Below, piece after piece: positions 3,936 through 4,475 of a stretch of 64,000 bases of DNA. The notes under the pieces were generated by a model, which worked only from the letters and a program-made list of their open reading frames with translations, made no database searches and was not told where the DNA came from. Numbering within the stretch: position 1 is the stretch's first letter; each line of letters opens with the position of its first letter. Location: sequence record OQ626344. One strand, written 5' to 3'. This DNA comes from Escherichia phage S127 BCL3. The position numbers were made by a program, and so were the translations under genes.

Positions 3936-4475
3936 CCTGAAGAGTCTGAATAAGTGTTTAAGTACCAGTCAGAGGAAAAGGTGAATGGTAGCCGAAGGGG
4001 GAGGGGGGTTTCTTATATCTTTAATTTGTATACTTTATATACACTTGTAAACCAATTCAATTAGGATCTGTTTACCACACAAAGTGGATGGAGACAAATA
4101 TCACCTATTAAACTTGAATTATTTATAGAAAATACCACAACACCACTTAAGTATTTGATTTTACACACAAATCTTACAAATATCCTACCTCCATATTTAA
4201 CATACTTGTAACATATCCCATATCCTACCTGCCTGGTCAATTTACTCCCACCACATCCCCACATTTTCCCTGTCTGTACTACCCCACCCCCGCCGGGAGT
4301 CCCGTCATATCTGGCTTCCCAGCAAATATCACACCCACAAATATCATCACCTGAAGAGGGTTTCATCCCATAATACACACCTTGCCTGAAGAGCGCTTCA
4401 TACACCACCTAAATTTTTTAATTGACCCCTCCCCGCCGCCGGAGAGGTTGGCTTTTCCCACACAGGCCTGAAGAG
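3936..4475. repeat. dispersed 9-mer CCTGAAGAG, four copies (3936, 4350, 4385, 4467)
   Basis: Exact 9-mer four times in 540 bp of non-coding DNA. Confidence 0.7.

Follow-up and report, generated by a model that had tools for sequence, protein, structure and literature searches.

Short words repeated beside a packaging cut site are known from phage lambda, where R1-R3 of cosB lie next to cosN and are read by the small terminase gpNu1 to position the nuclease. In phi29, a strongly expressed structured RNA of up to a few hundred nt, the pRNA, is encoded near the genome end. In the T7 record, a 160-bp terminal repeat is accompanied by CCTAAAG arrays confined to one strand, and CACCTAAAGAGGGTC stands 78 bp ahead of the right terminal repeat; to our knowledge, the role of the T7 heptamers themselves is still undefined. 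At the T7 junction, PacB is recognised by gp18 (the small terminase) and PacC is cut by gp19 (PMC9860248), and pausing of the RNA polymerase recruits the terminase (PMC3276506). The rV5-like phages, which are common in anti-E. coli O157 and therapeutic cocktails, carry a 2-kb 'non-coding' box that has been without explanation since 2013. Oriented recognition words arrayed at a terminal-repeat cut site have precedents in T7 and lambda, and the feature described here would be of this kind; the present instance and its words are undescribed.

The window (the whole stretch of DNA analysed, 64 kb) comes from an rV5-like coliphage of the genus Vequintavirus, and ~120 records match it at 87-99% identity. 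Nineteen GenBank records labelled 'UNVERIFIED: Campylobacter phage' (MG0656xx; e.g., L004 and L014) are likewise ordinary vequintaviruses (~87-91% identity), and their assignment to a Campylobacter host is doubtful. Exact matching placed the 9-mer CCTGAAGAG at 3936, 4350, 4385 and 4467, all on the + strand and all precisely where the initial annotation had reported them, and a fifth + strand copy, absent from that annotation, at 3276. The remainder of the 64 kb holds just two more, at 34041 (-) and 51172 (+); the word is thus not equally frequent throughout the sequence, the total of 7 comparing with 0.63 +/- 0.82 expected, and 0/100 dinucleotide-preserving shuffles reached 7. Scaling the shuffle rate arithmetically to 540 nt of one strand gives an expectation of ~0.003, in agreement with the earlier figure of below 0.01. 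Successive copies are spaced by 35, 82, 414 and 660 nt; their number and spacing vary among genomes, and helical phasing is absent. The companion repeats that had been described are also real: the window has seven CAAATATC copies, of which five fall at 4095-4627, all on the + strand, and CCCCGCCG occurs 4 times in the window where 0.53 are expected.

The non-coding status claimed for this DNA holds. The only sizeable open reading frame, which would encode 115 aa on the - strand (4061-4408), was not seen outside this genome, the 15 relatives having stop-free stretches of 49-71 aa there, and the authors of the rV5 study found no ORFs in the homologous 104013-106618 (PMC3606486). A coding explanation was rejected, since this minus-strand frame is not conserved and the indels between clades in 3741-4012 are not multiples of 3.

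The 9-mers lie within a 2.1-kb ORF-free gap (3573-5713) flanked by convergent gene blocks, which corresponds to the 'non-coding' box of the rV5 paper. Multiple independent GenBank records terminate within this gap. Defined ends have been published (PMC7471380, PMC6563267), and a vequintavirus has been classed as headful-packaged in one PhageTerm-based report (PMC13211470). Phage Gotham has annotated, identical 459-bp repeats, one at each end of its record, which map to 4578-5036 of the window at 95.9% identity; UPEC06, a phage of the sister genus, has a 462-bp terminal repeat with boundaries homologous to the Gotham-type ones (left ...TGCTGCCA/GGC..., right ...TTGTC/, the slash marking the cut). 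The ends of this particular phage are thus assigned by homology to phages with known ends. The gap contains the terminal repeat and would therefore be the concatemer-junction region, and the repeat at 4578-5036 accordingly puts the four reported 9-mers 111-642 nt upstream of the left cut site. Read by this homology, the gap sits just inside the right physical genome end, and the decisive context missing from the initial annotation is that the 9-mer cluster abuts the packaging cut site predicted at the edge of the direct terminal repeat. The apparent ends of ECO340P2 were set aside, because the overlap between its start and end amounts to just 55 bp and resembles an artefact of the assembler.

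Both boundaries of the repeat fall within small odd palindromes, GCC-A/GGC on the left (4570-4585) and TGTC/T-GACA on the right (5030-5045), and the boundary sequences are kept between the two genera. No Pfam domain was found in the proteins neighbouring the gap. Small proteins encoded on the - strand at 6132-7042, and their relatives, are labelled 'DNA translocase' or 'DNA translocase FtsK' in some GenBank records; the 'FtsK' label looks spurious because no such Pfam domain is present (best E = 0.018, below the cut-off). An FtsK/KOPS explanation was rejected: although the G-runs are compatible with GGGNAGGG, copies of GGGNAGGG are spread over both strands, and an FtsK domain is missing from the neighbours that bear this label.

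The features of the region are as follows, with positions in the window. Clade B denotes eight divergent relatives, retrieved from viral and metagenome contigs with a pattern conserved in the gap.

3276-3284, + strand: 9-mer copy S0, atggCCTGAAGAGgcaaac; the last + strand gene begins ~70 nt downstream (ATG 3358)
3573-3700, + strand: end of the + strand genes
3713-3740, + strand: near-consensus sigma-70 promoter, TTGACA-16-TGnTAAAAT, 11/12 matches, extended -10
3741-4012, + strand: near-invariant promoter-driven element, ~265 nt, 5' polypyrimidine, 3' end GAAGGGGGAGGGGGG
3936-3944, + strand: 9-mer copy S1, inside the ncRNA-like element
4013-4100: variable AT-rich spacer, not conserved
4095, 4177, 4323 and 4338, + strand: CAAATATC words, the tandem pair 4323/4338 kept in all three lineages (Vequintavirus, sister genus, clade B)
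4280-4366, + strand: conserved module of ~90 nt, CCCCaCCCCCGCCGGGAGTCCCGT..CTGG..CAAATATC-N7-CAAATATCAT-N3-CCTGAAGAGGGTTTCAT, ~80% identity with clade B
4288 and 4431 (span 4288-4438), + strand: two CCCCGCCG(N)GGAG boxes, each heading a degenerate unit that ends in the 9-mer
4350-4358, + strand: 9-mer copy S4, end of the conserved module
4385-4393, + strand: 9-mer copy S4', in a genus-specific 35-nt local duplication, CCTGAAGAGsGyTTCAT (repeat family D10)
4467-4475, + strand: cut-proximal 9-mer copy S5, 111 nt before the repeat boundary, followed by GAAATATC at 4483
4530-4577 (spacer from 4500), + strand: hairpin-rich spacer, variable among genomes, in which (A)GGAGTGCTGCC is part of a 33-nt duplication (repeat family D15), ending TGCTGCCA/
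4577/4578: predicted left cut site, TGCTGCCA/GGCG, with conserved left half TGCTGCCA
4578-5036: equivalent of the 459-bp direct terminal repeat (physical ends), by homology to Gotham and UPEC06
4620 (+43), + strand: CAAATATC inside the terminal repeat
5037-5460, + strand: hypervariable right flank of the repeat, with its own same-strand TGACAY and GTTTAC/CTGTTTACGC arrays

The words thus form an array of one orientation in the ~500 bp directly upstream of the left boundary of the repeat, in DNA that is C-rich and G-poor at 4100-4500 (GC skew -0.53 to -0.40 over 4050-4500). The ~90-nt module, which can also be written CCCCGCC..GGAGTCCCGT..CAAATATC-N7-CAAATATCAT-N3-CCTGAAGAGGG-YTTCAT, appears as a BLAST island (4268-4366) against clade B, the DNA around it failing to align. 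The proximal arrangement reads CCTGAAGAG-N8-GAAATATC. Both CCCCGCCG boxes share an identical CCCCTGCCCC variant in several relatives, and CCCGCC boxes are present in other lineages too, while the duplicated segment carrying S4' is missing from clade B. Next to the cut, the 33-nt tandem duplication (4530-4576) includes GGAGTGCTGCC, the left half of the cut-site sequence; only some vequintaviruses have the duplication, and with it the position of the proximal 9-mer changes from -77 to -111 or -145. Conservation drops abruptly beyond the right boundary of the terminal repeat (divergence 0.17 over 5037-5460), and the TGACAY and GTTTAC/CTGTTTACGC arrays are kept in every vequintavirus despite this sequence turnover. 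An exact 20-nt repeat (5176, 5450) in this flank brackets an 18-bp perfect inverted repeat (5285-5302, 5419-5436).

A word showing neither conservation nor protein binding had been named in advance as something that would speak against function. In a 16-genome vequintavirus alignment, the 27 columns of the copies at 4350, 4385 and 4467 have a divergence of 0.012, as against 0.093 for the neighbouring non-coding columns of 4013-4577 (8-fold; permutation P = 0.04), and S0 and S1 are invariant in 16/16 genomes. Single copies have been lost to point mutation in some vequintaviruses.

Comparison beyond the genus covered 22 genomes (16 vequintaviruses and 6 sister-genus phages) as well as clade B, whose gap is ~50-75% identical to that of the window or unalignable. 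A proximal CCT[GA]AAGAG at -77 to -145 is present in 15/16 vequintaviruses and 5/6 sister-genus phages (20/22). The sister-genus phages LTH01, A7_1, A5-4, A73 and UPEC06 have a proximal GGCCTGAAGAG or GCCTAAAGAG at -103 to -128, along with a distal GCCTAAAGAG and the CAAATATC pair; exact copies number just 1-2 in this genus, accompanied by degenerate GCCTnnnGAG words seen by eye. The copies of every motif are on one strand in 22/22 genomes, with no reverse-complement copy from 1.4 kb upstream to 1.2 kb downstream of the cut, and AAATATC stands at +43/+44 within the terminal repeat in all 22. Clade B keeps exact CCTGAAGAG at homologous stations, upstream of the last gene and after the tandem CAAATATC pair, and its proximal word lies 63-188 nt before the putative cut. 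Every clade-B genome with sufficient sequence has 3-5 copies of CCT[GA]AAGAG less than 500 bp from the putative cut. The S1 homolog inside the promoter-driven element is present in three of the eight members and deleted in the other five through a ~25-nt indel.

The order and strand of GCCT[G/A]AAGAG and CAAATATC are thus unchanged across divergent lineages in which the surrounding DNA is largely unalignable, and with respect to the cut and the AAATATC pair the 9-mer likewise keeps its order and strand in all three. Without any alignment, the 9-mers common to the 560 bp upstream of the cut in the window and to three clade-B genomes are (G)GCCTGAAGAG(G/T), (C)CACAAATATC(A) and two single-copy islands; 300 shuffles gave zero shared 8-mers. 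In 43 distinct contexts from the three lineages the 9-mer core is invariant, with G at -1 in 32 of the 43, while the flanks are unrelated, and the unit under selection would therefore be the 9-10-bp word itself. Conservation across lineages is stronger evidence than conservation within the genus. Phapecoctavirus was tried as a fourth lineage and set aside, its gap having none of the shared words.

These data bear on the possibility that the copies have no function of their own and are relics of the local duplication of a longer unit, persisting by hitch-hiking. The copies at 4350 and 4385 are an obvious 35-nt duplication, 4280-4358 and 4426-4475 resemble two degenerate copies of one unit, and the within-genus signal is only modestly significant. 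However, the core is exact between unrelated flanks in three lineages; the 9-mer is also one of only two word families common across the clades, and both its strand and its position relative to the cut site are conserved. Pure duplication relics are unlikely, and a wholly functionless origin of the array appears very improbable to us. The feature is real and conserved, and looks functional. The initial annotation had proposed clustered binding sites for a sequence-specific protein or a repeated RNA motif; of this, a specifically recognised word as opposed to a chance cluster is supported, given the conserved columns and the survival of the word at homologous stations in two further lineages, while nothing points to host nucleoid proteins as its readers.

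We suggest, tentatively and with a probability of roughly 0.45, that GCCTGAAGAG and CAAATATC are strand-specific cis-acting DNA words of a packaging and concatemer-processing signal of rV5-like phages. As in pac or cosB-type sites, the words (-111 to -642) adjoin a cut or repeat boundary and are conserved in position and orientation among relatives that share the cut site; the order of the array, its orientation and the cut-proximal copy are kept in three lineages while the intervening DNA has diverged beyond alignment. In the scenario we favor, a sequence-specific recognition protein would bind the repeated words in replicated concatemers, the most plausible candidate being the small terminase or else an accessory factor by which it is recruited. 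This protein would assemble on the word-array side of the junction and place the large terminase for a cut ~100 bp further downstream. Because all words point the same way, the junction would have a polarity, by which the cut and the packaging direction would be defined. From 840 bp upstream, a strong and conserved promoter is directed into the array; it may open or mark the region, comparable to transcription from phiOR and the pausing of the polymerase at the concatemer junction of T3/T7.

Set against this packaging signal are the copies at -642 (in the transcribed element) and -1302 (upstream of a gene), which are too distant for a classical pac site, and the former is dispensable in 5/8 clade-B members. 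The variable copy number and unphased spacing, the low number of exact copies in the sister genus, the losses by point mutation and the headful call for one vequintavirus also speak against it. These far copies and the deletions at -642, together with the closeness of S0 to a gene and its inverted partner described below, keep alternatives at the level of RNA, of operators and of a replication origin alive.

The first of the far copies to consider is S0, which could suggest that a phage DNA-binding regulator reads GCCTGAAGAG as an operator upstream of the last gene and across the gap, timing expression or silencing transcription into the genome end. In two clades S0 stands invariant at ~70 nt ahead of a gene start, the clade-B homolog frequently has an inverted CTCTTTAGG partner 14 nt away, an arrangement resembling the operator of a dimer, and the words in the gap lie downstream of a strong promoter. 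However, most copies are remote from any promoter or gene, all are direct repeats with the sole exception of this clade-B partner, and no enrichment was seen at other sigma-70 promoters, with 2 further copies in 62 kb. A search of the genes beside the gap found no regulator (Pfam negative). We regard operators as distinctly improbable. A described promoter element was also rejected as the identity of the 9-mer, which is not dispersed, unlike the promoters of rV5, which are sigma-70-like with an additional TggTAaAAtA (PMC3606486).

The promoter at 3713-3740 reads towards the 9-mers and the terminal repeat. Its hexamers are invariant in the 16 genomes, and clade B has TTGCAA-17-TGcTATAAT at the homologous place. 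The element behind it (3741-4012) has a divergence of 0.006, compared with 0.036 for the adjacent CDS (~6-fold), and its clade-B homologs, ~50% identical, differ by indels whose lengths are not multiples of 3. RNAalifold gave a consensus fold of 46 pairs, with a closing helix between the 5' polypyrimidine and the 3' G-run and further internal helices. In this fold 99% of cells pair, where slid controls reach 53-59%, and changes on both sides affect 10 pairs, where the controls have 0-2, for example UAUGGCA/UGCCAUA against UAUCGCA/UGCGAUG; this fold was derived from the very sequences on which it was tested, and its signal amounts in essence to a single split separating two clades. Folding energy gave an MFE z-score of only -0.98, so that the case for an ncRNA rests on conservation and covariation. 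Rfam 15 produced no match to the window at gathering score, with chance-level miRNA-type hits (E >= 0.8) in 3400-5900, and neither a tRNA nor a tmRNA was found. The element has no match in 5,426 E. coli genomes, and a profile search found it in neither sister group, which led us to reject a host or mobile origin. A hammerhead ribozyme was rejected as well: CUGAAGA fits the CUGANGA core, but GAAA and the stem arrangement are lacking and Rfam finds nothing. We consider 3741-4012 a credible candidate for a new phage ncRNA, predicted to lie just inside the right genome end (~570 bp from it).

With such a transcript at hand, the words may act as RNA, either as RNA-protein sites or as termination or processing signals in the transcript from 3713-3740, which would consist of a structured 5' domain of ~265 nt and a C-rich, G-poor unstructured tail containing GCCUGAAGAG and CAAAUAUC. 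This fits with a near-consensus promoter kept in two clades, with every word being on the transcribed strand and one 9-mer copy lying within the conserved element; S0, being upstream of a + strand gene, would probably be transcribed too. No intrinsic terminator was found on the + strand at 3775-5396, and 4050-4500 (GC skew -0.53) resembles a Rho-loading site, its composition agreeing with that of rut sites (at least 80 nt, C-rich, G-poor and of weak structure on the transcribed strand). The module copy of clade B lies within a terminator-like site of hairpin and U8. In the other direction, the sister genus retains the words without the promoter-driven element or any obvious replacement promoter, and the structural context of the word, by inspection, varies by copy between loop, stem and none. 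Pairing between the G-run and the C-run, which are able to pair, was ruled out by missing covariation. We consider an RNA-level role of the words rather unlikely. We found no vequintavirus transcriptome in the literature. The clade-B hairpin is that of L016 (reverse complement, ~3932-3958), where the 9-mer of the module is part of a hairpin with U8 behind it (AGGCCUGAAGAGGGCUU-CAUUUUUUUU); this terminator-like site is on the strand of the words and has no equivalent in the window.

A bolder proposal is that the element is a new ncRNA in end recognition or processing. Its read-through transcript would carry the GCCUGAAGAG and CAAAUAUC words as far as the cut site, so that recruitment of the terminase could be transcription-coupled or RNA-assisted. 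A large myovirus would then use the host polymerase for something corresponding to the T7 junction pause, or would have an RNA distantly analogous in function to the phi29 pRNA. This proposal seems to us quite improbable.

The same promoter also has to be weighed as part of a replication origin, in which the words would be iteron-like elements and a promoter-driven G-rich RNA would prime or activate replication near the genome end, on the model of ColE1 RNA II, a T4 ori or T7 phiOR. The order of promoter, structured RNA ending in GGGGGAGGGGGG and AT-rich variable stretch fits such a model, as does a skew switch seen in the region by the rV5 authors (PMC3606486). Clade B has, in addition, 2-3 perfect DnaA boxes inside its putative terminal repeat. 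However, the words have a core of 9-10 bp at irregular spacings of 35-660 bp, as opposed to the phased iterons of 17-22 bp, and a set of at least three direct repeats of ~17-22 bp with regular helical spacing was not found; the skew switch coincides with convergent transcription. The AT-rich stretch at 4013-4100 is variable and in L016 is interrupted by an inserted gene. No DnaA box with up to 1 mismatch occurs in the gap of the window, for which a DnaA-box origin was rejected, nor does the gap combine a conserved AT-rich unwinding element with DnaA boxes and an initiator gene; no initiator gene is adjacent, the neighbours being without Pfam domains. An origin appears improbable.

The inserted gene of L016 (reverse complement, ~2880-3643) has an HNH-like motif, IDHIDRDPSNNHLDNLRLV, read by eye, and lies between the ncRNA-like element and the C-rich word array, where the window has its variable AT-rich spacer. 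The perfect DnaA boxes (TTATCCACA) are in tandem at +355 to +386 from the putative cut in L016, L033, L034, L037, L040 and L046, and so fall inside the putative terminal repeat.

For the rV5-like phages, the genome ends, cut-site sequences and oriented array in the box provide concrete cis-elements to test. Possible uses include packaging studies, transducing particles and packaging-defective (biocontained) derivatives, as well as the correct orientation of genomes in databases and engineering that spares the signal. Since its conservation exceeds that of the genes beside it, the candidate ncRNA would be an unusually clean target for the first functional phage ncRNA of this group.

Among known systems, the logic of the packaging signal proposed here is that of T7 pacB/pacC and lambda cosB. 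The likeness to T7 and T3 lies in a short direct terminal repeat flanked by one-strand arrays of a 7-10-bp word, with many copies adjoining the repeat as in the SRL/SRR of T7, and in a promoter upstream of the right end that fires toward the junction. The T7 word CACCTAAAGAGGGTC at -78 even resembles CACCTGAAGAGGGTT of the window, and the proximal copies of several vequintaviruses stand at -77/-78; this resemblance may be coincidental, and would be analogy and not homology. The phages are unrelated, T7 being a podovirus with its own polymerase and the rV5-like phages ~137-kb myoviruses using the host RNA polymerase, and a comparison of the gap with the phage collection found no homology to T7-group junctions, returning only Vequintavirus. 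The T7 heptamer occurs inside the terminal repeat and on both flanks, whereas the 9-mer here is confined to the left flank, CCT[GA]AAGAG being absent from the terminal repeat and from the 1.2 kb to its right in all 22 genomes, and the right flank uses other words, TGACAY and GTTTAC.

Lambda cosB likewise places several copies of a short word beside a cut site, although its R sites are 16 bp long, lie within ~120 bp of the cut, include one inverted copy and need IHF, as opposed to a 9-10 bp core spread in direct orientation over at least 500 bp beside ends formed by a 459-bp repeat and not by cohesive ends. The resemblance to the phi29 pRNA lies in the position of a promoter-driven element near a genome end. 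The pRNA and the candidate ncRNA have no sequence or Rfam similarity, the protein-primed ends of phi29 involve no terminal-repeat cutting, and the sister genus is without the element. ColE1 RNA II, T4 oriF/oriG and T7 phiOL/phiOR share with the locus a promoter, an RNA with a G-rich 3' part and AT-rich DNA near an end, but differ from it in that the AT-rich part here is not conserved and DnaA boxes occur only in clade B. The closest counterparts of the array thus appear to be the oriented recognition words at the cut sites of T7 and lambda.
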